63,055 nucleotides of DNA from an uncultured Gammaproteobacteria bacterium (GCA_964637345.1 CAZWTD010000004.1:1-63055), one strand, 5' to 3'. Counted from the first letter of the stretch, positions 3,092 to 45,937 are shown. Numbers and translations are program-made. Notes: generated by a model from the sequence alone, not told the origin.

Positions 3092-7439
<4,348 letters not shown>

Positions 7440-8941: not shown

Positions 8942-9016
8942 CTACGACTTCCCTGAACGAAAAGGGCAAATCCGATTAAACTCGCACTCAGCGCAGAGGA
9001 AGGGGTCTGGGGTGGC
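8942..9016 (-). pseudogene. Orphan duplicate of the helicase 3' end (ATPDPFLCAECEFNRICPFRSGKS*)
   Basis: 8958-9013 matches 10395-10450 at 52/56 nt, with a 32-nt perfect core. The differences are synonymous. Confidence 0.9.
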
Positions 9017-9060
9017 GGAGATTCTGTCCTGCGGATTGCTTAAATAATATCAAGGTATAT

Positions 9061-9088
9061 TTGACAATTATATTATTTATGTTATTTT
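9061..9088 (+). promoter_or_regulatory. Sigma70 promoter of the islet gene
   Basis: TTGACA-N16-TATTTT with extended TG in an AT-rich tract. Confidence 0.55.
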
Positions 9089-9130
9089 GACGAGTCCAAA
9101 AATAAAAACTAATAACCATGGAGGTGCCCT

Positions 9131-10255
9131 TTGAAAAAGTATGAGATCTTGCGTGCGATGGGTTGGACTCCGGTCCAAATCGCTGCTTTGCTGGATAGGG
9201 GAATTCCCCAACATGCAAAGGACCAATGCTTCCTCCACCGCTTCTGTCCCGAGCTTCGACCGGAGATTGAAGGGCGGTTAAAGGCGGGTCACTCGACGAT
9301 CAGAGAGTGGGAAAAACTGGCATCCTTAGATCCAGTTCTTCCATTCACTAAGGTTCACGATTTTGTTCTTGATCAGATTCTACCCCTCTTAGGAACTACG
9401 GTCGCCATTATTGATTCAATGTGCCAACTTGAGATGCGAGCAGATTCCATTAATCATCACCCTTGGACCCAGACAGCGTATGCAAGGGCGTTGTCCTTTG
9501 CAGCCAGCCTGGAGGACTGGATTTATCTCTGGCACTTCAGTCACGAAAAAGAAGTATCGAGACGGGCTGAGGCAAAAATCAGAGAGATGTGCTCCACGAA
9601 AGAAGACTGGGTGCACTTTCTTGAGAAGGCGGATGAGCTCGAAGCCTTTGAACGGGAGCTCTACGAATTTGCTGAACGGTTAGTCGGCAGAGAAATGGAA
9701 GATTCTGATCCTGGACTCAGCCTAAACACACACGCAGCCAGATCCACTTCTGATCCGGCGCTTGACTACCTTCGAACAGTTACGGCCTCTCTTCATGGAG
9801 AAATCACCGGAGACCCACAACAACTCTTCCAAGAACTCTTGCGACAGGTGCAGATTCTTCAGAGTGACGACAGCTGCGGTCCAGAACGAGCCTCGGCTAC
9901 CGGCTGGATCATGGATTGTCCGCTTCCCTTTTCTGCCTTCCTAACGGTAGCTAGACAACTCCCAATCGCTACCAAGCCAGAGGAGAAGATCTGGCAGTAT
10001 GTTAGCCGTGACGCTGAGTGTGGGGCGAATGACGCTGTTGTGAAGCGATTGATCGAAACGGCTCAAACACTGAGGGAATGTCACGCGGCGATCAAATACG
10101 CCCCAGACAGTGCTCGGCTAGCTCGCAAGTTCACCGCACTGGCCACATCGATTGAAGACTGGCTCTTTATCTGGAAGTTGGGACTTCAGACGCACAACGC
10201 TGAGCTACAAGACCTCGCATTTGTGAACGCTCTCCAGTATGCCACGGAGAGTTAA
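9131..10255 (+). CDS. Hypothetical alpha-helical repeat protein (islet cargo)
   Basis: GGAGGTG SD before a TTG start, with recurring A-x-[ST]-x-x-[DE]-W units. Confidence 0.7.
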   Translation: MKKYEILRAMGWTPVQIAALLDRGIPQHAKDQCFLHRFCPELRPEIEGRLKAGHSTIREWEKLASLDPVLPFTKVHDFVLDQILPLLGTTVAIIDSMCQLEMRADSINHHPWTQTAYARALSFAASLEDWIYLWHFSHEKEVSRRAEAKIREMCSTKEDWVHFLEKADELEAFERELYEFAERLVGREMEDSDPGLSLNTHAARSTSDPALDYLRTVTASLHGEITGDPQQLFQELLRQVQILQSDDSCGPERASATGWIMDCPLPFSAFLTVARQLPIATKPEEKIWQYVSRDAECGANDAVVKRLIETAQTLRECHAAIKYAPDSARLARKFTALATSIEDWLFIWKLGLQTHNAELQDLAFVNALQYATES

Positions 10256-10378: not shown

Positions 10379-13300
10379 CTATCCTCTTCCCGCCCGAAAG
10401 GGGCAAATTCGATTGAATTCGCACTCAGCGCAGAGGAAGGGGTCTGGGGTTGCAACAAAATCTAGAGATTCTATTGCTTGTATTGCGTTGAGCGCCCAGT
10501 CTTTCGCTTTGTCGAGCTCGGCCGGCTTCGGTTCTTTCGTAACTTTTTTGTTTTCATCAATATAGAAAAGGCTCAGTTGGCGAACCGGCCGACCGAGTAA
10601 CTCTGGATCGCTGACTGCGAGCGCGTAGAGGAGAAGTTGATACCAGCGATCAGCCGACGGCTTCTCCTTAGCCGGTCCGGTTTTATAATCAATAATCTCA
10701 ACGCCCTCCGAATCCCCGGGAATCGGATCAACGCGGTCAATCTTCCCGCCGAGAATCCTCCCGTCAAACTTAAGCGTGAAGGATTGCTCAAGAAGAAGAG
10801 GAACAGGAAAGGCGCCTTCTTGTGCCTTGTAAAAACGCTCAAGAACTGCCCATCCCTCCTTTTTTCGTTGCTCCATCTCGCGCTCTGAAGCGTACCATTC
10901 ACGAATCCAGGCTGACGCATACAAGGTCTTGAGTTCCTCAAGCGAAACGAGAGGCTTCGTACCCGACGAAGTTTGGGCGCCGAACAAGCTTCCCTGCTGC
11001 TGAACGCTTCGCTGTCGAACGAGCTGAAAAAAATGATAGAGCGTAGCGTGGATCGACGATCCATAGGACAGTCGCGCGTTACCGGACACCGGAACGTCAA
11101 GGACATAACGATAGCGATATTTCCATGGACAAAGCTCGTAGGCGCTTAAGCGCGAATAGTCGTAACGTTCGTTTGTCCGGACCTTCCGAATAATCGCCTC
11201 GGGCTCTCCGTCCGCGACCCTCTGCGACAAAAGCGGGGCGAGCTTCGGCTGGCGAACTCGCTCTTCAGCAGCAGACTCTTTCGTCACCAACCCAAGCTCT
11301 TCGAGAAACAGAGAAGCTTTTTTCCGACGCGCCCCGCCGTAATCTAAGGCCCGACATAAAATGATATGCTCTTTCGCGCGGGTCAAGGCAACATAAAAAA
11401 GCCGGCGCTCCTCTTCGAGATGAATATCGCCCTCCGGGAGCGGCTCGCGAATCAAGGCATCTGGGACCGGAATTCCCTCGCTCCGGTCGCGGGACGGAAA
11501 ACGCTGTTCAACGAGGTGGACAACGAACACCATGCGAAACTCCAAGCCCTTCGCCGCATGAACCGTCATCACCTTCACGCTATCCGGCCCGTCTTCAGGG
11601 GCGGTTTCGAGCCGACCGAGCTCACCGGCGTCTATCGCAAGATCAATGACCTCAAGGAATGCTCGGACGTTGGGCGCAAGTTTTCCGCGCTCGAATTCAA
11701 CGACCTCGTTTAAGAGCTGATTCGCGTAGCCAATTTCGGCCTCGCGCTTCGGATCATCCGGCGCTTCGCTTAGCCACTTCAAATACCCGCTCTCTTCAAG
11801 GAAGCTTACGATAACTTCTCGAGGCGTAGCGCGACGAGCGAGCTCTGCATGTCGGCTGATAAGGCTCAGGAGCCGGTCAGCGTCTGCATGCGCTTCCGGA
11901 CGCCAATCAGCGAGGAGGGCGTGATCGCGCAAGACGGCGAAGGTCGATCGGCTCTGGCGGCGCGCGGTTTCATTCAAAAGAATGACGTCATCAGCCCGAA
12001 ATCGAAACATCGGGAGATTGAGCACCCGCTGAAGCGCGACGCTTTCATGATAATTGTCGAGAAGTCGCACGTAGGCAAAAATGTCGAGCACGATACTCAT
12101 CCGGTAGAGGCCACGCGAAGCGACGTATTGGTACGGAAGACCGTTCCGTTCCAACTCGGACAGAAAGAGCTCAGCGTGGTCATTAGCCCGAACGAGAATT
12201 GCTACGTCGCTCCAGGCTAGCGTCGCGTCGGCATTTTTCGCCTCTAAAATTTTCCCGACGACCGTCCGCGCCTCTTCAGCCTCAGTCTCAGCCACAACAC
12301 ACTGAATGGATCCGGCGTCCGGTCGCGCTGCAGTGAGTCTCTTAGAAACGGTCGTCCCGAGCTGCTTCGGAGCGGCGCTGAGCTGGGCCTCGAGCCGATT
12401 GGGGTTATTCTTTTGAATAAACGCATACGCCGCGTCGAGGATGGACTGGGCCGAACGGTAATTCTCCGTCAAAACGACGTCAGTGCTGTCCGGATAATCG
12501 TGCTTAAAGCCGAGGATATTCGCGACGGACGCGCCGCGGAACTTATAGATCGATTGATCATCATCTCCGACGACGGTGAGGTTTCTCCGCTTTCCGGCCA
12601 AGAGTTTCACTAACTCGTACTGCGCCCAGTTCGTATCTTGAAATTCATCAACGAGGATGGCGCGGAATTGCTCTTGGTAACGAGCGAGGATCGCCGGCCG
12701 CTCCCGAAAGAGGCGCATCGTCTCAACAATCAGATCGCCAAAATCGAGCCCCCAATGCTCGCGGAGCAAGCGCGTGTAGCGGTCGTAGCTTTCCGCGAGT
12801 TCGCGAAGGCGGTCGAGGTCGAGCGTTTCTTCATCCGCCGACACCCCGGGAACTCCGTCACTCGCATCACGATCGAGCTGAAGTTTTTTTACGAAATCGA
12901 GATAGTCGGCCGGCGTCACTCCCTCATCCTTTAATCGTGAAAAATGACTGACGAGGGATTTAAGAAATTTCGTGGGCTTTCCTGATGGGCGGTAATAGGA
13001 CAAGGGAAACTCGTCGAGGTGTTTTCGGAGAAACAGCCATTGCTGCCGTTCATTGAACAGCTCAAAGTCGCCCGGTAGACCGATATCAATCGCGTACTCC
13101 CGAAGAATGCGCTCGCCAAAGCCGTGGAAGGTCGACACCCACAAATCGAGATAGCCGTAGGGAACGCGCCGGTCAATTCGCTCCGCCATCTCGCCCGCCG
13201 CCTTTTCGGTAAAAGTCAAACACAATATTTCGTCCGGCCGGTACTTCTTCTCGGTCATGAGCCAGGCCATGCGCTCAACAATCACGGTGGTTTTGCCGGT

Positions 13301-21834: not shown

Positions 21835-22875
21835 ATGGAAACCCTCCTCCTCGTCGTTATCATCATTCTCGCCGCAATTCTTGTGGCTGGCTTCGCTTAC
21901 CTAAGCCAAAAACTCGGGAAGCTGCAAAAACCGGCTGACGATCCCCAGTCGCTCCTCATGCTCAACCAGAACCTTCAAGGCCTCCAGACCCGCCTCGACG
22001 AGACGAGCCGCTCGATCCACCAGTCGATGCAGACCCAGTTCGGCCAGAGCGCCCAGATTATCAAAGATGTCACCGAACGGCTCACAAAACTCGACGAAAC
22101 GAACAAGCAAGTCCTCAACTTCTCCGGCCAGCTTCAAGGGCTTCAGGACCTCCTGAAAAACCCGAAGCAGCGCGGCGCAGTCGGCGAGTATTACCTCGAG
22201 ACCGTCCTGAAGAATGTCCTCCCGCCCGGGAGCTACGAGACGCAATACCGCTTTAACGACGGCGAGATCGTCGACGCGATTGTCCGGGTGAAGGACAAGA
22301 TCATCCCGATCGACGCGAAATTCTCCCTCGAGAATTATAATCGCCTCGTCGAGACGACCGATCCGGTCGAGCGCGAGCGCCTCGAGAAGGCGTTCGTGAA
22401 CGACCTGAAGCTCCGAATCCAGGAAACCGCGAAATACGTCCGCCCGGAAGAAGGGACGCTCGACTTCGCCTTTATGTTTATCCCCTCGGAAGCGATTTAC
22501 TACGACCTGCTCATCAATAAAGTCGGCGCTGTCAAAGAGAACACCGAGAACCTCATCCAGCGCGCCGGCGGGAAATACCGCGTCATCATCGTCTCCCCGA
22601 CCTCCTTCCTCGCCTACCTCCAGACCGTCCTCCAAGGACTTCGCGCGCTCCAGATCGAAGAGTCCGCGAAAGAGATCCGCAAGAACGTCGACGACCTCTC
22701 GCGCCACCTCCGCGCCTACGAGGAGTATCATACGAAACTCGGCGGCCATCTGAAAACGACCTTGAACGCCTACGTCGCGTCCGACGGCGAGTTCAGGAAA
22801 ATCAACAAAGACGTCCTGAAGATTTCGGACGCGCCCGCCTCCCCCGCCCTCCCGCCGACCAACGAAACCGAATAG
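21835..22875 (+). CDS. rmuC: DNA recombination protein RmuC
   Basis: N-terminal TM, coiled coil, KQRGAVGE, IPIDAKF, FAFMFIPSE, VSPTS. Confidence 0.92.
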   Translation: METLLLVVIIILAAILVAGFAYLSQKLGKLQKPADDPQSLLMLNQNLQGLQTRLDETSRSIHQSMQTQFGQSAQIIKDVTERLTKLDETNKQVLNFSGQLQGLQDLLKNPKQRGAVGEYYLETVLKNVLPPGSYETQYRFNDGEIVDAIVRVKDKIIPIDAKFSLENYNRLVETTDPVERERLEKAFVNDLKLRIQETAKYVRPEEGTLDFAFMFIPSEAIYYDLLINKVGAVKENTENLIQRAGGKYRVIIVSPTSFLAYLQTVLQGLRALQIEESAKEIRKNVDDLSRHLRAYEEYHTKLGGHLKTTLNAYVASDGEFRKINKDVLKISDAPASPALPPTNETE

Positions 22876-22884
22876 CCCTGTTCC

Positions 22885-22992
22885 TTATAACAGCTCCCCG
22901 CTCGCAAGGTGCTGACTAGCCTGCGAGTAGTTCGCATAAAACACCAAACATAACCTTTATGCGCAATTATTTCGCATAATAACGAGTTGTAC
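22885..22992 (+). other. Degenerate attC-like recombination site preceding cassette 1
   Basis: TTATAAC(22885) and ACATAAC(22948), hairpins CTCGCAAGG/CCTGCGAG and TTATGCG/CGCATAA, ending in GTTGTAC. Confidence 0.45.
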
Positions 22993-23949
22993 GAAAATTT
23001 GCCTCCCTCATTATCAGATAAGCGCGGCTATACCACCAAGATTACTAAACACCGAATGACCCACAAATACCACATGCTAAAGTTCGACGTATTAGCAAAT
23101 GTTATATCGGGTCTTTTTGGAATAACTACAAAAAATAAAAGTGTTTTTGAAATCCCATCTGATTTCTTACTCATGTTTGATTTACAGGTAGAATTTCAAC
23201 AATGGCCTGATAAATCTGAAAGAAATGAAAGAGTGCATCAATTAGCCTCGAGACTGATATTAGCATTTAACGATATAAATGAATCGATTGGTTCATTAAA
23301 CAGAAATCTTGTTTTGCTAAATAGTGACTTTAGTTTGGTTAGAGTAAAAAAGATTCCGATTCAAAAAGCATTACTGGAGAAAAGACTAGACCAAGTATTC
23401 CATGATGTAAGAGTTTCTAAAGGTCTCTCTAGTATAATTACGCCCCATATAAAAAGTTCTCTAACTCTTTTATTAAGATCATATGTTGATCGGGTTGCTG
23501 AGGACTGTAAAAAGGTGGTCGAAGTAATTTCTCCAAGAGGTAACCCTTTAGTTAAAAACCTCAACGTGCCTCCCGCATACTTGCAGCAAACCAACGAGGT
23601 GTTAGATCTATTTTACCTTGGGTACAAATCTACAAGCCTACTGGTCTTAGGAAAACTATTTGAGGGAATATTAACTCGCTACATTATTCGTCTTGTGCAA
23701 TCGAATAAAATTAATTTGAACATGTCGGCCCTTAGAGAGATGACGTTTGATAATAAACTTGGACTATTGTTTTCAAAAGGATTTGTTACAAGAAAAGATT
23801 ACTTGATTCTTGCTAAACTGATTTGGGATAGGAACATTGGTGGGCATTTTGTGAGCGAAAGAAAACGTAGGGAATCAGAAAAAGAGGCAGAGGCCACAAT
23901 TAAGTTAGTTATGCCCTTATTGAAGAAGTATGACACAAAACTGAAATGA
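22987..23949 (+). CDS. Cassette 1: protein with C-terminal HEPN/DUF4145-like domain
   Basis: AT-rich. LVLGKLFEGIL..DRNIGGH contains R-x4-H. Alternative ATG at 23056. Confidence 0.7.
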   Translation: MYENLPPSLSDKRGYTTKITKHRMTHKYHMLKFDVLANVISGLFGITTKNKSVFEIPSDFLLMFDLQVEFQQWPDKSERNERVHQLASRLILAFNDINESIGSLNRNLVLLNSDFSLVRVKKIPIQKALLEKRLDQVFHDVRVSKGLSSIITPHIKSSLTLLLRSYVDRVAEDCKKVVEVISPRGNPLVKNLNVPPAYLQQTNEVLDLFYLGYKSTSLLVLGKLFEGILTRYIIRLVQSNKINLNMSALREMTFDNKLGLLFSKGFVTRKDYLILAKLIWDRNIGGHFVSERKRRESEKEAEATIKLVMPLLKKYDTKLK

Positions 23950-23988
23950 TAGCCGCGCTTATCTTTATTAGACGATCGGCAAATCATC

Positions 23989-24045
23989 GTACAACAGCGT
24001 CTATACGACATAACGAGTACGTCGTATGAGACGCAAACGTTAGGT
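23989..24045 (+). other. attC site 1 (57 bp)
   Basis: GTACAAC-A-GCGTCT-ATACGAC..GTCGTAT-G-AGACGC-AAAC-GTTAGGT, including an extrahelical G. Confidence 0.9.
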
Positions 24046-24063
24046 GCCATTTCGTCTCATAAC

Positions 24064-24654
24064 ATGTTGAAAGCTACGCTCGATAGAAATTGCTTAATAA
24101 GCCTGAAGGAAAAAGACGGCGAGTTTGAAGAAATTCAGGAAATTATTGAATTACATAAAAAGAAAAGTGTTACCGTTTTTGTATGTGCCATAAGCGCTTC
24201 TGAATATCAGAGTGACGGTAGCATATCTCCTAAATATGATGATTTTACAAATTACCTAAAATCAATTGGCTGTGAAACTTTGGATGAGCTAGAACCCATG
24301 GCATATTGGGATATAGCTTATTGGGATCACGCTCTCTGGTCTGGGGATTCTATGAAAGAGTTTGAGAAAAAAATACACGAAATTCTTTTCCCAAATCTCG
24401 AATTCGAATATCAAACTTTTTGCAAAGCAAAAGGAATTGATCCTGATGCTAAACCATTAGATAAAAAATGGCTGAATGCAAAAGCCGACGTACAATCCAT
24501 CTGGTCTCACATCAATTCAGGGAATGATATATTTATTACGCAAGACAAAAACTATTTAAAGGATCAAAAACGGCAACTATTAGTAACGCTTGGCGCAAAG
24601 AATATCAACTCGCCGAAGGAGGCATTAGAAATCATCCGACGAAACGGCACCTAA
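24064..24654 (+). CDS. Cassette 2: PIN-domain-like protein
   Basis: TLDRNCL, SASE, KADVQ, DIFITQDKNY acidic pattern. The stop TAA lies within the inverse core ACCTAAC. Confidence 0.72.
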   Translation: MLKATLDRNCLISLKEKDGEFEEIQEIIELHKKKSVTVFVCAISASEYQSDGSISPKYDDFTNYLKSIGCETLDELEPMAYWDIAYWDHALWSGDSMKEFEKKIHEILFPNLEFEYQTFCKAKGIDPDAKPLDKKWLNAKADVQSIWSHINSGNDIFITQDKNYLKDQKRQLLVTLGAKNINSPKEALEIIRRNGT

Positions 24655-25011
24655 CACGGGCTAGCCGGTTCGCGAGCTATACAACTTGTTTATCACTAAG
24701 CCATAAAAATATGTCAGCAGAATGGGTTTCAGCGGTAGCGGCGGTTATTTCAGTCCCAATATCTGTTTGGGCGATAATATCCGCAAGAAATAACTCTAAG
24801 AACATAAAGAACATCTCCCAACGCTTTGGGATAGTAATGGAAGGCAATACGGTAATTGGCTCTGGTACCGCAGTACATATTGGTGACAGGAAATAAGTTT
24901 GCTATACGCTCGCTCACCCAAATTGCTCATTCATTCCGGCGGTACCTCGCTTTGCTCGATATTCTACCGCCTCAATTCCGTCGCAACTTCGGCTAGCCCG
25001 AAACGTTGTGC
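24649..25011 (+). other. attC site 2, interrupted by a 225-bp insertion (138 bp when reconstituted)
   Basis: ACCTAAC-A-CGGGCTAGCCG ... CGGCTAGCCCG-AAAC-GTTGTGC, a perfect 11-bp stem. Confidence 0.8.
24711..24896 (+). CDS. 61-aa single-TM hypothetical protein nested in attC2
   Basis: N-terminal hydrophobic helix. Flanked by GCTATAC direct repeats at 24676 and 24901. Confidence 0.6.
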   Translation: MSAEWVSAVAAVISVPISVWAIISARNNSKNIKNISQRFGIVMEGNTVIGSGTAVHIGDRK

Positions 25012-25110
25012 GCCATCAGATGTATTTTACCTATTAAAGAACCGAGGCAGTTACTTCGCGCATTGCGGAGTACTTACCTCGGCGTTTCGTCGGGTCGCTG
25101 GTGATAACAG

Positions 25111-25506
25111 TCAGTCGATTCTGGATCTCGACGCGTTCGCCAGGTCGTCGATGACGAGTAATGTGGCGAGTCTGCTCGGATCATCCTTGATGACGTAGCC
25201 CGAGAAGGAACTCCGGGTGCCGTCAAGTCTTTGGAGCTCGACGACACTGACATTCCACTCAATCCCGGAAGATCCCAACCGGATGATCGTGGTCGACTCG
25301 TCGACGGCGAAGGCAGAGCTGTTATCGACAGTGCACTGTGCGATCCCGTCGTACCAGTAGACACCGAGGGTGCCCGTCGCACTCTGGAAGTGGAGCACCA
25401 TGGAATCGGTTGGAACAATGTGGCTGGTGAGTCGCACGCTACTGCACCCGGCGGACGCCCCGACGAAGAGCGTACCGATCAACACAAGGAACGTGAAACG
25501 CCTCAT
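25111..25506 (-). CDS. Cassette 3: predicted lipoprotein, reverse orientation
   Basis: AAGGAGG SD, signal peptide with lipobox-like SAG-C. Confidence 0.7.
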   Translation of the reverse strand: MRRFTFLVLIGTLFVGASAGCSSVRLTSHIVPTDSMVLHFQSATGTLGVYWYDGIAQCTVDNSSAFAVDESTTIIRLGSSGIEWNVSVVELQRLDGTRSSFSGYVIKDDPSRLATLLVIDDLANASRSRID

Positions 25507-25587
25507 AGCGAACCCTCCTTCAGTTGGGACGTTTGCCTGGCGGGGATCAAGACAATCGGTAGTTGCCAGATTTCTACCGAACGTGCG

Positions 25588-25616
25588 AGCGTATCACGAA
25601 ATGACTATAATGTCAA
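25588..25616 (-). promoter_or_regulatory. Cassette-internal sigma70 promoter
   Basis: TTGACA-N17-TACGCT with extended TG. Confidence 0.7.
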
Positions 25617-25646
25617 TAGAAACTGTAAGAAAATACATCTTACAGC

Positions 25647-25708
25647 GCACAACACGGCGTATACGCCACTCCGTTTCTCTCCGCAGCGCATACGCCGAAA
25701 CGTTAGCT
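25647..25708 (+). other. attC site 3 (62 bp)
   Basis: GCACAAC-A-CGGCGTAT..ATACGCCG-AAAC-GTTAGCT. Confidence 0.88.
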
Positions 25709-25730
25709 GACACTCAGGATTCTCACTTTT

Positions 25731-26210
25731 ATGACCTATAAACACACCCAAGTTAGCTACCTGATGATTACCGTAACGGCTGCGGTACTGATCCTCTTCG
25801 CCTGGGTGTATCTTACTGCCCGGGCCGAGGCGCCGTCCTATGACTCAGGAACAAACGCCGGCGTTACTGGAGCTATGGCGCTCGTCGTCGTTCTCCTCGC
25901 TTCCTTCGTTTCCTTGCACGTACGAATTGATGATCAGCGTCTACGGATCTCCTTTGGCTATGGCATTTTTACAAAGCACTTTGCCCTGCGCGACATCCAA
26001 TCAGCGAACGTCGTAAGAAATAAATGGTATTACGGGCTAGGAATACGCTGGTCCCTGAAGCCGAGGATGTGGATCTACGCCGTTTCCGGCCTTGACGCAG
26101 TTGAACTACAACTGAAGAACGGAAAAGTCTACCGGATCGGTACGGACGAAGCTCAAGAACTCGAGGGCGCGATTCTCCAATCGATACAAAGGGAACAGCG
26201 CGACTTCTGA
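25731..26210 (+). CDS. Cassette 4: two-TM protein with bacterial PH-like C-terminal domain
   Basis: Begins 29 nt after the core GTT. Two TMs, then WYYGLGIR..VSGLDAVEL..IGTDE. No matching attC seen downstream. Confidence 0.75.
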   Translation: MTYKHTQVSYLMITVTAAVLILFAWVYLTARAEAPSYDSGTNAGVTGAMALVVVLLASFVSLHVRIDDQRLRISFGYGIFTKHFALRDIQSANVVRNKWYYGLGIRWSLKPRMWIYAVSGLDAVELQLKNGKVYRIGTDEAQELEGAILQSIQREQRDF

Positions 26211-26319
26211 CCTAAAGCCAAGCCTCGCTTCTTTCGAGTTACATAAATAGGCCTTCAACACTCTCGCCTTCTCGGCAAGATTCGGATACCTTTCCCAAAT
26301 AAAAGTTGTCCCGCGGGTA

Positions 26320-26649
26320 TTACACCGCGGGACTTGGAGCAGACTGAAGCTTGCGAACGACGTCTTTCGGCAGGTCACGGTAACAGTGGCACTCATCATC
26401 GTAGCTTGCCAAGACGCCTCTTAGGGTCGCGACCACACGATCCCCGACCTTCGCTTCGGTCACGGTGATAAGCCGCTGGCCTTCGGCCCAGACTCTTGTC
26501 TCGATCTCGGCCACCGCGACCTGATCAGGCTCGAAAAAACGAAGGCTGTCGAGGATGACCGCGAGATGCCGAAGGCCGAGGCCGAACATGGCCAAGAGCT
26601 GACGCCGACGAGCACGCTCGAGAAAAAGCTGCACTTCGTCTAAACGCAT
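26320..26649 (-). CDS. Hypothetical protein
   Basis: AGGGAGG SD. A 9-bp hairpin GTCCCGCGG/CCGCGGGAC overlaps the stop. Confidence 0.6.
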   Translation of the reverse strand: MRLDEVQLFLERARRRQLLAMFGLGLRHLAVILDSLRFFEPDQVAVAEIETRVWAEGQRLITVTEAKVGDRVVATLRGVLASYDDECHCYRDLPKDVVRKLQSAPSPAV

Positions 26650-26701
26650 GACTACCTCCCTTTGTACAGAACCGATCCGAGCTTAATCGTGTTCAATAAA
26701 T

Positions 26702-26798
26702 CCGTCAAGAAAACACAAAACCGCCTCGGTGCCCGCCGAAGGGCGGACAGCCGGGCCTGGTTTGTGTGTTTGTGTTGCGCCGTGGACGGGAGTTTTTT
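26702..26798. other. Long irregular hairpin (leader RNA or terminator)
   Basis: Nested stems CCGTC/GACGG, ACACAAAACC/GGTTTGTGT and TGCCCGCC/GGCGGACA. Confidence 0.45.
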
Positions 26799-27063
26799 GT
26801 TTAACTGCGATCCGAATCGAGCTCGTGATTGAGCTCGTCGAGGAGTTCGCGCATTTCCGCGATCCACTGACGATGTCCGTGCGTTTTTAGACCAAGCTGA
26901 CGGACAAGCTTGGGCGTCCAGGAGCACAATCTCCGTTCAGACGCGTTCGAGGTTTCCTCCGAAACGAGAATCCTCCTTCCTCGAGCTCTCACCCGCCGAA
27001 AGCCTCTGAAGTACGCGGGCGAAAGAACAATAATGAACGAATCTGGATCACTCCAGAGCATCC

Positions 27064-27092
27064 AGTATAGCGCAAAAAAGGCTCCGAGTCAA
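27064..27092 (-). promoter_or_regulatory. Sigma70 promoter
   Basis: TTGACT-N17-TATACT. Confidence 0.75.
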
Positions 27093-27110
27093 CCCTCACC
27101 ATTTTTACTT

Positions 27111-27533
27111 AGCCGCTTTTCTTGGCAGCAAGAAAAGCGGCAGAAAAGAACTGCCGCCATGCCGAAAAACTCTTGAGCCTCAACCTCGCCGACCGGGACC
27201 GCGTAACTCGTTCGCCGGTATTCGGCGAACTTCGAACAAACGCGGTCATCCGAACGGCCGTCTCGGCCTGCGTTCATACGAGTTTTTCAGAATGGCGGAG
27301 CCAGAAGATCGTATCGAAGCGAAAATAAGATTTCAGCACGACGGGTCCGGGTCCCGCGCATGCTGTTTTTCAGCAAAAGAAACGCGTTCGACGGGAACGC
27401 ATTCGCGGGACCCGGAACTCTTTGCTTCTTTCTGGTTACAGAAAGAAGAGGGCGCCAGCCCTACGGATCAAAACCAAAAAGAATCTAAAATTCTTGCTGC
27501 CCTGCCTACCCCAGGCAGGCAAGAAAAGCGGCT
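27111..27533. mobile_element. MITE-like or structured non-coding element with 24-bp terminal inverted repeats
   Basis: Left end AGCCGCTTTTCTTGGCAGCAAGAA (27111-27134). The right end is its reverse complement (27491-27500 plus 27520-27533), split by a 19-nt palindrome. At least five internal hairpins. Confidence 0.6.
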
Positions 27534-27548
27534 CATTCAAGAATGCTC

Positions 27549-29240
27549 TTAGCGCAGCACCCCGCCCCACTCGAGGAGCGTAAAGCCTTTGCGCTCCGGA
27601 GTTTTGATATCATAGCCTTTCACGTCGATCGGCTTCTCGAGGGGCATGAAATCCATGAGCACGCGGATGATGGTATCCGGCTTCGGATCGACGGACAGGG
27701 GCGCGAGTTGATTCATCTCGCGGTTGCCGAGGAAGCTGATGAAGTAGTAGGGCGCGCTTTGCATCCGCGGTCCCCAGAACTCGATGAAGTCCGCGCGCTC
27801 TTTTGCGTTCAAGCCGAGTTGAGCGAGCTTCTCGAGAAGAAAGCCTTGGACTTCGTTTTGGGTAACGACCCAGCCGCGCTTCGGCGTTTCGTAGATCGAA
27901 TTGCTCCGACCTTCCCAGAAAAGATAGGGATAGGCGTTCCCGGTCGCGCGGTCGGTCAGATGCCCGGCCGGAGTCGCGGTCACCTTCCAGCCATTATTGT
28001 AGGCAGGTTCGGTCTTGCTGAAACCCCCAGTCGGCGCAACCTGAACACTGACATCAGTCGTCTTCTCCGGGTAAAGATAGATGACCGGCTTCCCGCATTC
28101 GGCGAGCGGCTGGAACTTCGTGTTCTGAGCCTGGATCAAGCGATCGAAGGGATCGAGGAAATAGATCAGCGGCCGATCAGCGAGAAATTCCTCGTAGGTT
28201 TGCTTTGTGCCATCCTCGCGCAAGGTGGCGTAGGAATCATAGATTTCAAGCAGGCGCTCATGGCGAGTATCCTTCAAGGCGTAGATTGCGTCGCCGAGAT
28301 TCGTAACGCCGACCCGCTCCAAGTCGCGGCCTAAAACAACCTCTTCCGGGTTCACCACATTCGCGTAATTCATCGCGCCGCAACCGCCAATTCGAACGAC
28401 GTTATAGATGGTCGTATTCGTCGTCCCGTCATTCCAGGTAATCGCCGGAATCTCGGTTGAGCCAATGAAATCAAAGACGAGCTTATAGGTTCGGACCGTC
28501 CCGTCCGGAGCTCGAAGATAAAAACCAAAATGTGGGAAATACTCGCTCGTTGAGGCTGGATCTGTGTAGACGTCGCCGTAGGTCGGATGCGTAAACGCGA
28601 CGGTCCGCCCTGCGCTATGGAAGAAGCCGTCTGCATCCTCGTCAAGTTCAAGGCTTTGGCGCGGACTCGGCCCGGTAATCGTTGCAGGGAAATCAAGCTC
28701 ACTGATCATCGTATCTGCATCAACCGTATACTTTGCCGGATCAAGCGCGTAGGCCGGGTCTTCAGACTGCTTTGCGAGGAGCACTAGTCCGGTCGGCGTA
28801 TTCACAAAACGATAGAACTGGGGAGTTGTTGCCGGGCCATCATACCGCGCGGAAACAAGATAGAGTGTCTGACCTTGATACTTCGAAGATTGCAAAGTTC
28901 CTGCGTCGATCGTAGTTAAGGTCATACCAGAGTCAGCGAGAAGGATGTCTGGGTTACTCACGACGCGAAGATCATCACCCGGCTCGAAAATCGACTCGGT
29001 TTGGACAGGCTCAAGTGAGGTATTCGTGTTCTCGAGCGAGGAATTGACGTTTTCGTTCGTGTTAGCGACGGCCGACCAGTTTACGTTGGCGACGGCATTC
29101 TCGTTCGCTGTCGTGTTCGTTCCCGTATTCGTGTTCGTCGGCGCTTCAGCTTTCTCAACGGCTAAAATCCACAACAAGGCGCCGATCCCGAGAATGAGAA
29201 CCGAGGCGGTCACGATCATCCAAATTTTTTGCTTCGTCAT
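27549..29240 (-). CDS. Membrane-anchored surface protein with C-terminal KPVIYLYP domain
   Basis: N-terminal TM, Asn/Thr-rich linker, CGKPVIYLYP..YLFWEG..FIEFW..EWGG. Confidence 0.8.
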   Translation of the reverse strand: MTKQKIWMIVTASVLILGIGALLWILAVEKAEAPTNTNTGTNTTANENAVANVNWSAVANTNENVNSSLENTNTSLEPVQTESIFEPGDDLRVVSNPDILLADSGMTLTTIDAGTLQSSKYQGQTLYLVSARYDGPATTPQFYRFVNTPTGLVLLAKQSEDPAYALDPAKYTVDADTMISELDFPATITGPSPRQSLELDEDADGFFHSAGRTVAFTHPTYGDVYTDPASTSEYFPHFGFYLRAPDGTVRTYKLVFDFIGSTEIPAITWNDGTTNTTIYNVVRIGGCGAMNYANVVNPEEVVLGRDLERVGVTNLGDAIYALKDTRHERLLEIYDSYATLREDGTKQTYEEFLADRPLIYFLDPFDRLIQAQNTKFQPLAECGKPVIYLYPEKTTDVSVQVAPTGGFSKTEPAYNNGWKVTATPAGHLTDRATGNAYPYLFWEGRSNSIYETPKRGWVVTQNEVQGFLLEKLAQLGLNAKERADFIEFWGPRMQSAPYYFISFLGNREMNQLAPLSVDPKPDTIIRVLMDFMPLEKPIDVKGYDIKTPERKGFTLLEWGGVLR

Positions 29241-29278
29241 ACAGAGAGTAAAAAAATATCTTGTCTAGGCTAAGAATA

Positions 29279-30058
29279 TCATATTTCACCCTCAACGAAG
29301 AGGCCGGTCAGATAGCTCGTATTTTCCGAGGCTGGGGCCTGCGGGTAGCGGCGAACTGAACTATCCCGTGCGAGAAATGCGAACGAAGTTGCGCCCAAGC
29401 CGCGAGCTACTTCTACGGTGAGCGCCAGGCCGGGCTGGGAATCGACCGTCACCTGACTCACGGCCCGAGGATCCATCGTCTCGAGCGCGGCACGGCTCCG
29501 ACCGTCTCGCTCAAGGGCTTCTGCCTCAGGTAAATAATGAGAAAAATCAAAGGAGCCGACAACAAAGCTATTCGAAGGGAGAAGCGTAGCGAGTTCATCG
29601 GCGGCAAGGATGGCGTCGGAAAGCGGAACGATGTCTTTTACGATAATCGGGAGAATCGGGGTCCCGGGAAAACGCGAACGGAGGTAGGGCAAGAGATTCG
29701 TAATGCCGTGCTCCTTCGCAAAAGGAGCCTCATCGATCGTGAACCGACCGGACGCGGTTACGCTCTCAAGCAACGCGGCGTCAGCTCCGCCAAGAGCGCT
29801 CGTTAAGAAGGGCCCGCTCCCCTCTTGAAAGTGATTCGGACTCACGAGGACGATAAGGTTCGGATCAGCGTCTACCGCCGTGAGTGCTGAGGTAATAAGA
29901 TCATCCGCGAGGAGATGATGATTCACGACCACGCCAAGATCACGCCGGCCAACAGGTGGCTCAGCTGGGCGTATGCTCAACGCGAACACCCCGACCGCTC
30001 CGACGAAGAGAGCAAGAGCGAAGAAGGCAACTGTTTTATGACGAATACCTTCAAACAT
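29279..30058 (-). CDS. AmmeMemoRadiSam protein B / MEMO1 family with N-terminal TM
   Basis: NHHL, SPNH, KEHG, SFDFSHY. Confidence 0.8.
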   Translation of the reverse strand: MFEGIRHKTVAFFALALFVGAVGVFALSIRPAEPPVGRRDLGVVVNHHLLADDLITSALTAVDADPNLIVLVSPNHFQEGSGPFLTSALGGADAALLESVTASGRFTIDEAPFAKEHGITNLLPYLRSRFPGTPILPIIVKDIVPLSDAILAADELATLLPSNSFVVGSFDFSHYLPEAEALERDGRSRAALETMDPRAVSQVTVDSQPGLALTVEVARGLGATSFAFLARDSSVRRYPQAPASENTSYLTGLFVEGEI

Positions 30059-35966: not shown

Positions 35967-37256
35967 CTAGCCGATCAGGCGCCGGAACGGTTCTTTATCA
36001 GCGTAAGGACCAATCAGGGCTAGGGTCAGCTGGCTGCGCTTGAGCACTGAGCGAGCAACGGATCGTACGTCCTCCCGCGTGACTTTTCGCAGCTTCGCCA
36101 TTTTCTCAGCCGGCGTCTCGAGCTTGTTCGTAAGAAGCCACTGTTTTCCGAACCAAGCCCCAAGACTCTCCGAATCTTCAAGCTCTAGGACGAGCTTGCC
36201 GTTCGTGAATTCTTTCGCCCGCTTGAGCTCAACCGCGCTCACGCCCTTCGCGGCGACTTGGTCAAGTTCGGCAAGGATGGCTTTAATCGCTTCTTCCGCT
36301 CGCGCCTTCGCTACCCCGGCCTGGATAAACAGCGCTCCTGTGTCTTCATACACACTCGGGGAGCAGCGAACCGCGTAGGCAAGACCCTTTCGTTCGCGAA
36401 TCGAAATGAAGAGCCGCGAACTCATATTCCCGCCGAGGATCGTCGAAAGGAGGGAGAGGGCTGGGAGCCGCCGATCCGCATACGACAAGGCCGGAAAGCC
36501 GAGTCCGATTTGTGCCTGTTCCGTTTCTTTCGTTTGAAGCCGGAGGCGCGGACCTTGCGCCACGGAGCGGTAGGGCCGAAGCGCGAGCGGTTGACGGCGA
36601 GACGTCGGGGCCGAGAACTGTTCCGAAATTTGCTTGAGGATGGTCGCCTCATCAAAGCGTCCGGAGACAACGACCATCATATTCGTCGGGAAATAATGCC
36701 GCTCGACGAATTTGAGAATCGTCTCCCGAGACACCGAGGAGATGACCGACCGCGGGCCGGCAATGAGCTGGCCGAGCGGATGGCCGCGGAAAAGCTCTTC
36801 TTCGAAGAGATCCTCAATGTACATGAGAGGATTATCTTCATACATGTTAATTTCCTCGATGATGACTTTCCGCTCCCGATCGATCTCCGTCGAATCGAAC
36901 TTCGAGTGATAAAGCATATCGGCCACAACGTCGAGCGCGAGGGCGAGATGGTCCGAGTTAATCTTCACGTAATAACCGGTATGGTCTTTGCTCGTGAACG
37001 CGTTGTATTCCGCGCCGACGCCGTCGAGCAAACGGGAGATCGCGAGCGTGTTCGGGCGTTTCGTCGTTCCTTTAAACATGAGGTGTTCAACGAAATGAGA
37101 AATCCCGTTCACCGCTCGGCTCTCGAAACGCGATCCGACCTTACAAAGGACAAGGACCGTTACAGCTTTGGTGTCCCGAAAGGGAACCGTTAATACGCGA
37201 AGACCGCTTCCTAATATTGTCGCATTGTACGGCCGATTAATGTGTTCCCTGATCAT
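35967..37256 (-). CDS. M16 (pitrilysin) zinc peptidase
   Basis: Inverzincin motif HFVEH, NAFTS, and ERKGLAY. Confidence 0.92.
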   Translation of the reverse strand: MIREHINRPYNATILGSGLRVLTVPFRDTKAVTVLVLCKVGSRFESRAVNGISHFVEHLMFKGTTKRPNTLAISRLLDGVGAEYNAFTSKDHTGYYVKINSDHLALALDVVADMLYHSKFDSTEIDRERKVIIEEINMYEDNPLMYIEDLFEEELFRGHPLGQLIAGPRSVISSVSRETILKFVERHYFPTNMMVVVSGRFDEATILKQISEQFSAPTSRRQPLALRPYRSVAQGPRLRLQTKETEQAQIGLGFPALSYADRRLPALSLLSTILGGNMSSRLFISIRERKGLAYAVRCSPSVYEDTGALFIQAGVAKARAEEAIKAILAELDQVAAKGVSAVELKRAKEFTNGKLVLELEDSESLGAWFGKQWLLTNKLETPAEKMAKLRKVTREDVRSVARSVLKRSQLTLALIGPYADKEPFRRLIG

Positions 37257-37258
37257 TT

Positions 37259-37834
37259 TTACGATGAGAATAACGTAGTCGGTAAATATGCCGAGATCTC
37301 TTCCTTCGTGAGAAGGCGGGTAATATTTGCATATCTTTGAAGGCCATAGCTTGGGCGGTCCGCAAAACCAATATACTCAACAGTCTTCTTGTACTTTCGA
37401 ACTCGCTGTAACGCCGGAATTAAATCGGTATCTGAGCTAATCAAAATCGCTACGTCATAACGGTCCTCAAAAGCGCCTTCGACAAGATCTACTGCCAGCC
37501 GAACATCGACGCCTTTTTCATGATACGTCTTATCCGGGTGCTTCATAATGTGTCCTCGGACAACAGAATAGCCTTGGTCTACTGACTCAAGCCAAGCGAA
37601 AAGTCGTTGCTGATTGCGAACCATCCTGTCTACATTCGCATTGAGATTCCCGGGATCTCTCCGGACGATACCTACGTAATAGTTTTTCGAAACAACCCTC
37701 CTCTCGCCCGCCAACCATTGAGCAAGAAGACCATAATTAAACAGAATCGGGAATCGCAATGCGCCGCTTTTTAGAAGGCGACTCGCCCCATTATAGAAAT
37801 TGCTTCCATCAATAAAAACGGCTACGCGCAACAT
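37259..37834 (-). CDS. NYN-domain (LabA/DUF88, PIN-fold) protein
   Basis: FIDGSNFY, EKGVDV, SSDTDL. AT-richer than its neighbours. Confidence 0.88.
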   Translation of the reverse strand: MLRVAVFIDGSNFYNGASRLLKSGALRFPILFNYGLLAQWLAGERRVVSKNYYVGIVRRDPGNLNANVDRMVRNQQRLFAWLESVDQGYSVVRGHIMKHPDKTYHEKGVDVRLAVDLVEGAFEDRYDVAILISSDTDLIPALQRVRKYKKTVEYIGFADRPSYGLQRYANITRLLTKEEISAYLPTTLFSS

Positions 37835-37835
37835 A

Positions 37836-37875
37836 AACAAAAACCTGCCATTACGCCTTTCGACGTAGGGGCAGG
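37836..37875 (-). terminator. Terminator-like hairpin inside the NYN 5' leader
   Basis: CCTGCC..GGCAGG stem followed by TTTTTGTTT directly before the ATG. Confidence 0.5.
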
Positions 37876-37891
37876 GGTGTTAGTAATAGGT

Positions 37892-37920
37892 AGTATATCC
37901 CCTTTTTTCACTATTGTCAA
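37892..37920 (-). promoter_or_regulatory. Sigma70 promoter of the NYN gene
   Basis: TTGACA-N17-TATACT. Confidence 0.8.
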
Positions 37921-37923
37921 CCT

Positions 37924-39252
37924 TTAAAACGATGAGCAAAAAAAACTAGGGATTTCGCTAAGAAGAATCCTCTCCTGTTCCATCGTATCCCGGTCACGGA
38001 CAGTCACAGCGTTATCATTCAAAGTATCGAAATCGACGGTGACGCAGTAAGGCGTCCCGATTTCATCTTGCCGCCGGTAGCGCCGGCCGATCGAGGCGAC
38101 GTCGTCATACTGAACAACGAAATTCGGCCGGAGCAACTCTAGGAGTTCCTGGGCTTTTTCAGGTAAGCGATCTTTCTTCGAGAGCGGAAGAATCGCAATC
38201 TGCACCGGGGCAAGGTGCTTCGGAAATTTCAAAACGACTTCCTCTTCTTTATTCGACTCTGTCGTCGTTGTCCGGCCTCCCTCAATCTTCGTGTACGACT
38301 CCAGCAAAACGGCGAGGAGGAGACGATCAATTCCGCCCGTCGGCTCGATGACAAAAGGCCGGTAGGTCTCCCCGCTTTCCGGGTCCCGGTAGATGAATTT
38401 CTTTCCGCTCGCTTTTTCGTGCTGTGCAAGATCAAAATCCGTTCGGTTCGCAATTCCCCAGAGCTCGTCCCAGCCCCACGGGAACTGATAGTGGAAGTCG
38501 ACGGTCCGCTTGCTGTAATGCGCGAGCGTATCCTTCGGGTGCTCGTGGAGTTTCAAATGCTCTTCCTTTAATCCAAAGTCATTCACGAGCGAGTCGCGCA
38601 TAAAGCTCAGCCACTCATCAAAGGCGCGTTCGTCGTCGCCCGGTTTCACGAAATATTCAAGCTCGGCAATCGTGAACTCCCGAAGCCGAAAGAGAAAATT
38701 CCGATAGGTGATTTCATTCCGAAAGGCCTTCCCGATCTGGGCAATCCCGAAGGGCAGGCGCGCGCGGGCGCTCGTCAAAATATTCGAAAAGTTCGTGAAC
38801 ATCCCCTGCGCGGTTTCCGGGCGAAGATACGCGACATTCGACTCCTCTTCGACCGGACCGACGAAAGTCTTAAACATGAGCTGGAATTCGCGCGGATCAG
38901 TAAACTGCCCTTGGTGCTTATGGGCCTGGATCGTCTCAACATGGTCGGCGCGGAAGCGCTCGTGGCAAACACGGCACTCGACGAGCGGATCAGTAAAGTT
39001 CGAGAGGTGTCCGCTCGCCTCCCAGACTTTCGGGTTCATGATGATCGTACTCTCAACCCCGGCCATATCCGAACGCGACTCAACAAAACGCTTCCACCAG
39101 CGCCGTTCGATATTCCGCTTCAGCTGAACCCCGAGCGGACCGTAATCATAAAAGCCGCCGATTCCGCTATACACTTCGGAAGAAGGATAGACAAAACCGC
39201 GCTGCTTTGCAAGCGAGATGAGCTTTTCCATGATGTCAGATTTCTCAGCCAT
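37924..39252 (-). CDS. glyQS: Glycine--tRNA ligase, homodimeric (eukaryote-like) type
   Basis: YDYGPLG, LRPETAQG, GKAFRNEI, LFRLREF, VIEPTGGIDR, YRRQDEIGTP. ATG at 39252. Confidence 0.95.
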   Translation of the reverse strand: MAEKSDIMEKLISLAKQRGFVYPSSEVYSGIGGFYDYGPLGVQLKRNIERRWWKRFVESRSDMAGVESTIIMNPKVWEASGHLSNFTDPLVECRVCHERFRADHVETIQAHKHQGQFTDPREFQLMFKTFVGPVEEESNVAYLRPETAQGMFTNFSNILTSARARLPFGIAQIGKAFRNEITYRNFLFRLREFTIAELEYFVKPGDDERAFDEWLSFMRDSLVNDFGLKEEHLKLHEHPKDTLAHYSKRTVDFHYQFPWGWDELWGIANRTDFDLAQHEKASGKKFIYRDPESGETYRPFVIEPTGGIDRLLLAVLLESYTKIEGGRTTTTESNKEEEVVLKFPKHLAPVQIAILPLSKKDRLPEKAQELLELLRPNFVVQYDDVASIGRRYRRQDEIGTPYCVTVDFDTLNDNAVTVRDRDTMEQERILLSEIPSFFCSSF

Positions 39253-45475: not shown

Positions 45476-45488
45476 TTCGTTCGTCGGG

Positions 45489-45854: not shown

Positions 45855-45937
45855 GTTCTCTTTGTTTTTCGTTTCAATTCAGACAAATACAATATAGCAC
45901 ATTTTTCATGTTTTGTAAACATCGCTACAAATGTGAA

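Follow-up and report, generated by a model that had tools for sequence, protein, structure and literature searches.

We analyzed a stretch of 63,055 nucleotides (nt) of DNA (CAZWTD010000004.1:1-63055, from assembly GCA_964637345.1, an uncultured Gammaproteobacteria bacterium). We refer to this whole stretch as the window and count positions from its first letter. At 22956-26210, the window contains an array of what appear to be mobile gene cassettes. The array has no recombinase gene and lies directly downstream of rmuC, which is itself downstream of the ATP synthase operon. The closest relatives of the window's RmuC are from metagenome-assembled genomes (MAGs) of Patescibacteria, so we assign the window to the candidate phyla radiation (CPR), as an earlier note on this sequence had suggested. 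GC content is 0.36-0.41 in cassettes 1 and 2 (23-25 kb) as compared to around 0.55 in the surrounding window, and the 4-5 open reading frames (ORFs) of the array have no match in Pfam, NCBIfam, or PADLOC. The order of features is:

21835-22875: rmuC (Pfam RmuC, E = 2e-53); the stop codon ends at 22875
22876-22955, plus strand: remnant of the spacer between a recombinase gene and attI, which contains a GACTAGC motif, a pair of hairpins, and, at 22931-22939, an additional copy of TTCGCATAA
22956-22988, plus strand: attI-like, dif-like primary site, TTTATGCGCAA-TTAT-TTCGCATAA-TAACGA-GTT
22987-24039: cassette 1, complete
24040-25005: cassette 2, complete
25006-25702: cassette 3, complete, followed by an open-ended fourth cassette

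Each of the three complete cassettes begins with a GTT core (R') that is complementary to an inverse core (R'') near its own 3' end. These pairs are GTTGTACGA at 22986 with TCGTACAAC at 23987-23995 (cassette 1); GTTAGGTGCC at 24039 with GGCACCTAAC at 24646-24655 (cassette 2); and GTTGTGCGC at 25005 with GCGCACAAC at 25645-25653 (cassette 3). All three had been reported in the earlier note, along with a common layout, AAC-A-stem..stem-AAAC-GTT, which we also find at all three junctions (J1-J3). AAACGTT is on the plus strand at 24035, 25001, and 25698. The complementarity had been given as 9, 10, and 9 base pairs (bp), which is real, but the actual extent is much longer (18-46 nt). The ends of cassette 1 are complementary across 18 nt (89%) and another 16 nt (100%), the ends of cassette 2 across 18 nt (94%), and the ends of cassette 3 across 24 nt (88%). 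The repeats and the two simple junctions are:

22986-23031, plus strand: left inverted repeat of cassette 1 (R' core GTTGTACGA and outer stem)
23949-23995, plus strand: right inverted repeat of cassette 1 (outer stem and R'' core TCGTACAAC)
23987-24041, plus strand: J1, with R'' (23987-23995), A (23996), arm (23997-24009), loop (24010-24020), arm' (24021-24034, with one bulged G), AAAC (24035-24038), and GTT (24039-24041)
24039-24056, plus strand: left inverted repeat of cassette 2 (R' GTTAGGTGCC..)
24638-24655, plus strand: right inverted repeat of cassette 2 (R'' ..GGCACCTAAC)
25005-25028, plus strand: left inverted repeat of cassette 3 (R' GTTGTGCGCC..)
25630-25653, plus strand: right inverted repeat of cassette 3 (R'' ..GCGCACAAC)
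25645-25704, plus strand: J3, with R'' (25645-25653), A (25654), arm (25655-25666), loop, arm' (25686-25697), AAAC (25698-25701), and GTT (25702-25704)

On its own, a GTT../..AAC pair of 9 nt carries no significance: there are 18 such pairs in the window and 11.7 in random sequence. The significance of the array comes from the tiling of the cassettes together with the common hairpin layout, and not from single 9-nt pairs. If we had only the chance-level pairs, the location of the hairpins between ORFs, and the GC-rich stems that some of them have, then we might think that there is no recombination system here: the hairpins could be terminators or repetitive extragenic palindromic (REP)-like sequences, and the complementary ends could be due to chance or to a terminal inverted repeat or HUH element. 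The hairpins are not followed by a run of T, however, and each cassette has complementary ends of its own, over 18-46 nt.

The sites are predicted to fold more stably on the minus (bottom) strand than on the plus (top) strand, at -12.8 vs. -11.2 kcal/mol for J1 and -16.2 vs. -12.3 kcal/mol for J3. For the minus strands of J1 and J3, none of 200 shuffled sequences was equally stable. When we closed the cassettes in silico, the circle junction was one long hairpin which comprised, from its base up, an outer stem, a 9-bp core stem with the GTT/AAC end, a 3-nt bulge, an arm stem of 11-14 bp, and a loop. Here too the minus strand was more stable (-46.2 vs. -40.4 and -34.5 vs. -26.7 kcal/mol). Since the first bases of each cassette pair with its own R'' across 18-46 nt, a free circle would carry one long hairpin.

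Similar sites are found in other samples (loci on other contigs are referred to by our locus numbers, such as L091). As the basis of a covariance model (R1), we took seven simple sites, all from other samples (L091, L128, L162, and L165), and we scanned both strands of the whole window with it, filters off. The 13-bp helix of R1 is 95.6% paired and includes 5 pairs that changed on both sides; no shuffle reached the observed score. None of the seven sites has a bulge in its 13-bp arms. The two top matches of R1 in the window are on the plus strand, namely J1, with 61.1 bits (E = 8e-15), and J3, with 39.2 bits (E = 1.3e-8), and the next-best match was the reverse strand of J1 (17 bits). R1 also matches L166, L167, L150, and L110. 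It did not find sites at the window's other local dips in GC content (9001-10000, 37001-38000, and 45001-46000, at 0.47-0.51 vs. around 0.55). A permissive scan of 22500-27500 with Rfam, which does not have an attC family, gave chance matches only.

We also searched metagenome contigs for exact copies of an 18-mer from J2 (CGGCTAGCCCGAAACGTT), which gave 71 loci. Around 45 of the 71 share the whole site GCTCGCTCAC-CCAAAT-hairpin-ACTT-CGGCTAGCCCG-AAAC-GTTRNNNGAMAT. Across the loci, we identified 65 unique sites of the form AAC-A-arm..arm'-AAAC-GTT, whose arms vary in sequence yet remain complementary. Many of the 3' arms contain TCGYATA. J1-J3 have a spacer of 1 nt (A) opposite 4 nt (AAAC), as do 81 of 82 family hits. 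The strict consensus RYYYAAC/GTTRRRY is matched by GTTAGGT only. A search with the 9-nt cores gave 84 candidate cassettes, a few of which are chance matches. At the ends of these candidates, 20-28 of the first 30 nt are typically paired, and a 2-nt mismatch at positions 10-11 is conserved. The mismatches that are compatible with G.T pairing favor the bottom strand (226 vs. 114 for the top strand), and the same kind of bias was reported for attC sites (Nivina 2016). In the window and in L162, L166, and L167, the GC content of the cassettes is below that of the host. We did not find any description of integrons or similar arrays in CPR bacteria in the literature, of which our coverage was incomplete, and this variant is apparently both widespread and undescribed.

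Two side observations concern the loci from these searches. In L096, L099, L108, L112, L114, L137, L139, and L153, the 18-mer lies within one identical unrelated sequence (..GGGCAAAAT-18mer-TGAGCAGTTCGTGAGCC); this is probably one genome region that was assembled repeatedly and is outside of the family. And in L110, a 44-nt "empty cassette" (GTTATGCCGCC..GCGGCATAAC) is present twice in the array (3276-3321 and 6576-6620), with the same complex site after each copy.

Traffic of cassettes with other genomes, as proposed in the earlier note, is borne out by cassette 2, which we found in two other samples and in other contexts. In L091, the protein is 75% identical, the upstream ORF is unrelated, and the upstream hairpin is different (..GGACAAC-A-GCGTATAAACGAT..ATCGTTTATACGC-AAAC-GTTATATGCCATTTCGTC). 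The downstream sequence of L091 is GACGAAACGACATATAAC-A-CGGGCTAGCCGG, and this downstream arm is the same as in the window. The cores of L091 are altered at both ends (GTTATATGCC / GACATATAAC; AGGTG became ATATG), and these changes compensate for each other. In L092, from a third sample (SRR22388171), the protein is 96% identical, and nt 1-25 of the contig match 24983-25007 of the window (the 3' end of J2) and are fused directly to the start of cassette 2. Judging by nt 1-25 and 1074-1102, the contig ends around 44 nt short of self-closure. The ends of L092 are compatible with either a free circular cassette 2 or a tandem copy. In a circle, we would expect arm'-AAAC-G to be fused to the cassette's own TT.. 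start, as in CGGCTAGCCCGAAACGTTAGGTGCC. The contexts in L091 and L092 place the break within the conserved AAAC-GTT and imply that each hairpin is part of the cassette that lies 5' of it. Also, the first cassette of L150 (reverse strand, around 11330-12830) has GAT and ATC at its two ends where the other cassettes have GTT and AAC, a compensating change in a triplet that is otherwise invariant. The crossover would thus be 5' of the triplet's second base, which is consistent with G↓TT (the arrow marks the crossover).

As far as sequence comparisons can tell, then, this is a genuine array of mobile cassettes that were joined by site-specific recombination at the conserved ..AAAC↓GTT... We rejected terminators and REP elements as explanations given the lack of T-runs, the cassette-specific complementarity, and the compensatory changes between homologous cassettes. 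That there is no recombination system at all seems extremely improbable, as one and the same cassette turns up between different neighbors with AAAC↓GTT as the precise breakpoint, the R1 matches are specific, and, as described below, 7 of 7 loci have a tyrosine recombinase next to the array. We also considered single-stranded DNA transposition of the IS200/IS605 type, and we rejected it because there is no HUH protein or transposase among the annotated genes of two arrays and a tyrosine recombinase is linked.

The second junction, J2, is more complicated:

24646-25007, plus strand: composite junction J2, with R'', A, 5' arm CGGGCTAGCCG (24657-24667), nested unit, stem 3, 3' arm CGGCTAGCCCG (24990-25000), AAAC (25001-25004), and GTT (25005-25007)
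24668-24917, plus strand: nested unit in J2, GTTCGCGAGCTATACAACTTGTTTAT .. ORF61 (24711-24896) .. ATAAGTTTGCTATACGCTCGCTCAC
24918-24989, plus strand: stem 3 of J2, CCAAAT-hairpin-ACTT (GGCGGTA../..TACCGCC), which is a conserved module of the family

The earlier note's second attC site does have the common layout, but it is not a simple hairpin: its 11-nt arms are 322 nt apart and enclose an ORF. This ORF (ORF61) encodes 61 amino acids (aa) and has inverted repeats of its own (left, GTTCGCGAGC..; right, ..GCTCGCTCAC). With the interior of the ORF removed, J2 is predicted to fold into a three-way junction (-35.3 kcal/mol for the minus strand vs. -30.4 for the plus strand). Split sites like this are common. 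In 44 of the 65 unique sites, the arms are 300-1300 nt apart, and 42 of these 44 sites enclose a plus-strand ORF of at least 50 aa. Examples are 24668-24989 in the window; 3942-4673, 4952-5367, and 7519-8594 in L110; and sites in L163 and L165. The second stem of the three-way junction has the form GTKMGCGAGC..ORF..GCTCGCKMAC and is followed by CCAWAT-hairpin-ACWT. The same arm sequences are also found as short uninterrupted sites, and a perfect "empty" palindrome (CGGGCTAGCC-GGCTAGCCCG) is present in L116, L145, and L146. In L092, the J2 frame contains a different nested ORF, of 130 aa, in place of ORF61, so the nested unit is itself exchangeable. Our best guess is that nested ORFs are inserted via a second recombination point at stem 2 (GTK../..MAC). 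ORFs within recombination sites apparently have no described counterpart.

The array opens with a primary site (22956-22988) that the earlier note had missed. Positions 22971-23000 of the window are identical to the recombinase-proximal site of L162, and the 15-mer TTCGCATAATAACGA (within the site TTCGCATAATAACGA-G) is common to the window, L150, L162, L166, and L167/L168. A motif form of the attI-like site is TTCGCATAATAACGAG. The GACTAGC motif of the spacer remnant is also found upstream of the primary site in L150 and L167, and the L162 version is GGCTAGC. The attI-like site has the 11-6-11 architecture of dif sites: GGTTCGCATAA-TAACGA-GTTGTACGAAA, as compared to GGTGCGCATAA-TGTATA-TTATGTTAAAT for dif from E. 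coli. Of the 11 positions in the left arm, 10 agree with the XerC arm of E. coli dif. The cassette junction is at the right edge of the 6-nt center. Because the window's array opens with the system's primary site, we would expect a recombinase gene to its left, and this gene is absent. At 22.9 kb, neither the GC skew nor the gene orientation switches (large ORFs lie on the minus strand to either side), so the window's site is not at a replication terminus. GC skew near L162, L166, and L167 was uninformative, as these stretches are just 14-21 kb.

In other genomes, the sites are linked to a recombinase. Five loci with sites of this family (L110, L101, L115, L150, and L162) encode a tyrosine recombinase of 270-294 aa that adjoins the array. 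Gene and array diverge in each of the five, and between them is a palindromic site, which is followed by ..CGA/CTA-GTT and the first cassette. Two homologues that we picked without regard to the sites (P0077, from a Kerfeldbacteria MAG, and P0061, from a 979-kb contig) have the same arrangement, which brings the divergent arrangement with a primary site in between to 7 of 7 related loci. The arrays beside these two homologues, in L166 and L167, also contain matches to R1. In L150, L162, L166, and L167/L168, the TTCGCATAATAACGA-G site, which is near-identical to 22971-23000 of the window in these five, is around 80-105 nt from the recombinase's start codon, and L110, L101, and L115 have different palindromic sites at the recombinase-proximal position. 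The hosts of these recombinases include Woesebacteria, Kerfeldbacteria, Portnoybacteria, Pacebacteria, Gracilibacteria, Peribacteria, and "Patescibacteria group" bacteria.

These recombinases score 211-241 bits against NF040815 ("XerA / integron integrase"; the full name of this family is "site-specific tyrosine recombinase/integron integrase") and 165-189 bits against XerC/D models. They score 186-223 bits against TIGR02249, the model for integron integrases (IntI), in two stretches and below its cut-off of 265 bits. When aligned to VchIntIA, around 42 residues of VchIntIA are skipped (residues 177-199 of the L110 protein are opposite 179-244, and residues 198-211 of the L162 protein are opposite 190-245). 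The skipped residues are the IntI-specific additional domain, so this domain is absent. As described in a passage of PMC9668308 that cites Messier & Roy 2001, the additional domain around patch III is defining for IntI.

The earlier note had proposed an integron array of the type known as a cluster of attC sites lacking an integron-integrase (CALIN). A mobile cassette array without a recombinase is indeed what we see, but membership in the canonical integrons is not established, given the missing domain, the lack of conserved extrahelical bases, the spacer, the long outer stems, the ORFs inside many sites, and the dif-like primary site. We compared the CPR arrays to class 1 integrons, to the sedentary chromosomal integrons of Vibrio and Xanthomonas, and to CALIN elements. 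They have much in common: a recombinase gene that is divergent from mostly promoterless single-gene cassettes, with the primary site beside the gene; cassette sites that are imperfect palindromes with ..AAC/GTT.. cores that pair with their own inverse core; crossover at G↓TT; a bottom-strand G.T bias; and ORFan cassettes whose GC content deviates from the host's. Ordinary attC sites that are used by a true IntI, encoded elsewhere in the genome or in a donor, would account for the cores and their pairing, the hairpins, the attC-like length of J1 and J3, the strand bias, the low-GC ORFan cassettes, and the absence of an integrase from the window. Yet we consider this to be very unlikely. All of the recombinases beside such arrays are shorter (around 275 aa), lack the IntI-specific domain, and fall below the cut-off of TIGR02249. 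The sites also differ. Canonical sites have a central spacer of around 5/6 unpaired nt, whereas the CPR sites have A opposite AAAC and no conserved extrahelical bases; the pairing of the R box runs into a long cassette-specific outer stem, with the 2-nt mismatch at 10-11; two thirds of the sites enclose an ORF; and the primary site is dif-like. Furthermore, a 2026 survey (PMC13323075) found that integron-type recombinases were mostly outside of complete IntegronFinder integrons. IntI1 is probably the wrong enzyme for these sites. Archaeal integrons (Ghaly et al. 2022, PMC9668308) are also integron-type arrays in small-genome MAGs from outside of the classical Gram-negative hosts, and their attC sites are reported to fold like the bacterial ones and to be found by IntegronFinder. 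However, archaeal IntIs are reported to have the additional domain, and the CPR recombinases do not have it.

Another explanation would start from Xer recombination. The recombinase of around 275 aa could be the housekeeping dimer resolvase and its site the chromosomal dif, with the cassettes being hijackers that are similar to integrative mobile elements exploiting Xer (IMEX) or to dif modules, and no dedicated platform for gene capture. The 11-6-11 site whose left arm nearly matches E. coli dif, the lack of the IntI domain, the XerA-like score, and the huge size of the family, whose members are named XerD or tyrosine recombinase in many CPR MAGs, are all as expected for Xer. Moreover, Smyshlyaev et al. 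(2021) described a Xer-related subgroup, "Cand", in candidate phyla, and our recombinase family may be this subgroup. The CPR arrays and known Xer/dif systems and Xer-dependent elements (CTX phage, XerS/difSL, and XerH/difH) also share a Xer-like recombinase with a dif-like site beside its gene. It is well established that the attP hairpin of CTX phage, as folded single-stranded DNA, mimics dif. By analogy, a folded single strand of a CPR cassette could mimic a two-arm site, and the exchange of one strand could be resolved by replication.

But the CPR arrays consist of many single-gene cassettes that have one orientation, are divergent from the recombinase, as in integrons, and each carry their own hairpin. 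The window's site is not at the terminus, with no switch in GC skew or gene orientation; it is present without the gene; and there are no phage or plasmid genes. The recombinases score higher against the IntI model than against XerC/D. A separate XerC-like protein is encoded on the 715-kb contig of L103, near a family site (5657-6553; 187 bits against TIGR02224 and 98 bits against the IntI model), and a Xer may coexist with the site family in some genomes. The pdif modules of Acinetobacter are likewise bounded by Xer-type sites and shuffled between replicons. However, they use full 28-bp double-stranded sites in alternating C/D-D/C orientation, and the CPR arrays, which have no alternating pdif-style sites, use unidirectional hairpins with cassette-specific cores. 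Overall, the Xer explanation seems unlikely, though less so than ordinary attC sites.

We believe that 22956-26210 is probably a recombinase-less array of an integron-like cassette system that is widespread in CPR bacteria. More tentatively, we propose that this system is the CPR's own integron, of an ancestral type: a Xer-like recombinase without the IntI domain, a dif-like capture site, hairpins that mimic dif and lack extrahelical bases, an apex where ORFs can dock, and arrays that serve as reservoirs of defense genes. In our main interpretation, the array starts with a double-stranded dif-like site (..TTCGCATAA-TAACGA-G↓TT..), followed by cassettes that each have their own 3' hairpin. A cassette site consists of an R'' core (..YAAC), A, an arm of 11-14 bp, a variable apex, arm', AAAC, and G↓TT. 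The recombinase would bind the folded bottom strand of this site, where the arm duplex and the R-box duplex around the AAAC/A bulge would mimic the arms and the center of a dif-like site. In other words, the folded cassette site may imitate a dif-like site much as CTX phage attP does. One pair of strands would be exchanged with attI or with another cassette site, and, by analogy, replication would resolve the product. The apex can take the form of a three-way junction, with another ORF inside its second stem (GTKMGCGAGC/GCTCGCKMAC), as in J2 with ORF61. In the window, the recombinase gene beside the array would have been lost, and further traffic would depend on a copy elsewhere. The missing extrahelical bases and the missing protein domain would fit each other.

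Several observations weigh against our interpretation. First, the earlier note had described an extrahelical G in the first attC site; the bulged G of J1 is real, but if the plus strand is the top strand, then it is on the arm opposite to the canonical extrahelical bases. On the bottom strand, it is on the same arm as AAC, which is the arm expected for top-strand recognition in a canonical attC. (We considered taking the minus strand as the top strand to account for this bulge, but the ORFs, the divergent recombinase, and the G.T bias favor the plus strand.) Second, across the candidate cassettes, the bottom strand's gain in stability is small (a mean of -0.4 kcal/mol, and better in 50 vs. 31 cases), and the choice of strand and the single-strand exchange are argued by analogy only. 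Third, we did not detect a tyrosine recombinase anywhere in the 63-kb window, just as the earlier note had reported no IntI there. Fourth, none of 80 rmuC loci from related CPR genomes has such sites, so the placement of this array next to rmuC is unusual. Fifth, the ORF of cassette 3 is in reverse orientation, and cassette 4 has no matching R'' or 3' site downstream. Finally, the recombinase family has over 7,500 clusters at E < 1e-30, and it may be a general Xer of the CPR rather than a dedicated integrase.

If our proposal is correct, the CPR system would stand between Xer/dif recombination and integrons, either as a living intermediate or as an independent parallel. Integrons are thought to have derived from Xer-type recombinases by gaining a domain that reads the extrahelical bases of attC. 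A system that combines a dif-like site, bulge-free hairpins, a recombinase without that domain, and integron-style arrays would make the transition from Xer to integron directly testable. It would also give CPR symbionts, which have small genomes and few known mobile elements, a route for capturing genes, including defense genes. In the 2026 survey, 97% of the contigs with "integron-type" recombinases were not completed by IntegronFinder, and novel attC sites were one possible cause (PMC13323075). If so, the CPR sites would explain some of the integron-type recombinases in metagenomes that lack detectable attC sites.

As to the surroundings of the array, all that the related rmuC loci share with the window is the atpE-atpB-rmuC synteny, which is seen in L002, the nearest relative. 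Downstream of rmuC in L002 (10958-12930), the array is replaced by a pair of paralogous small secreted proteins of 156 and 142 aa on the minus strand. The interval between rmuC and tatD is a variable spot in the lineage of the window and L002, and 26320-30058 of the window also has no counterpart in L002. Comparing the recombinase to the related rmuC loci (1.24 Mb) with tblastn gave nothing. An ORF at 36-725 of the window had a weak tblastn hit (E = 0.002), but we rejected it as a remnant of a recombinase because it does not match any integrase family in Pfam.

The cassettes encode the following:

22987-23949, plus strand: cassette 1 ORF, with a called length of 320 aa, though translation may actually begin at the ATG at 23057; GC content 0.36; no family match
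24064-24654, plus strand: cassette 2 ORF, 196 aa; no family match; weak PIN-like fold
25111-25506, minus strand: cassette 3 ORF, 131 aa; N-terminus like a signal peptide or lipoprotein; no family match
25702-26210, plus strand: cassette 4, open-ended (R' GTTAGCTGAC), with an ORF at 25731-26210 of 159 aa that is membrane-like

The stop codon of the cassette 2 ORF (TAA at 24652-24654) is inside GGCACCTAAC, so the earlier note was right that it lies in the inverse core. The note's label for this protein, PIN, is not supported by Pfam, NCBIfam, or PADLOC and reflects only a weak resemblance in fold. The predicted structure (pLDDT of 81.7) matched HARP/PRORP (probability 0.92, E = 0.02, template modeling score 0.44) and VapC11 (probability 0.66). 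Cassette 2 has few relatives in all (L086-L094), and two of these (L091 and L092) are cassettes. We considered whether cassettes 1 and 2 form a two-gene system, and we rejected this because the neighbors of the cassette 2 homologues are all unrelated. In L087 (7-1514) and L088, a homologue of cassette 2 (50% identical) is right after the CD-NTase and Cap15 effector genes of a cyclic oligonucleotide-based antiphage signaling system (CBASS), which hints at a role in defense.

The arrays in L167 (84-9842) and L166 (60-2479) include genes for restriction-modification, SduA_C (Shedu), GmrSD, T5orf172, HEPN_AbiU2, and NUDIX proteins. Defense genes are thus seen as cassettes in these CPR genomes.

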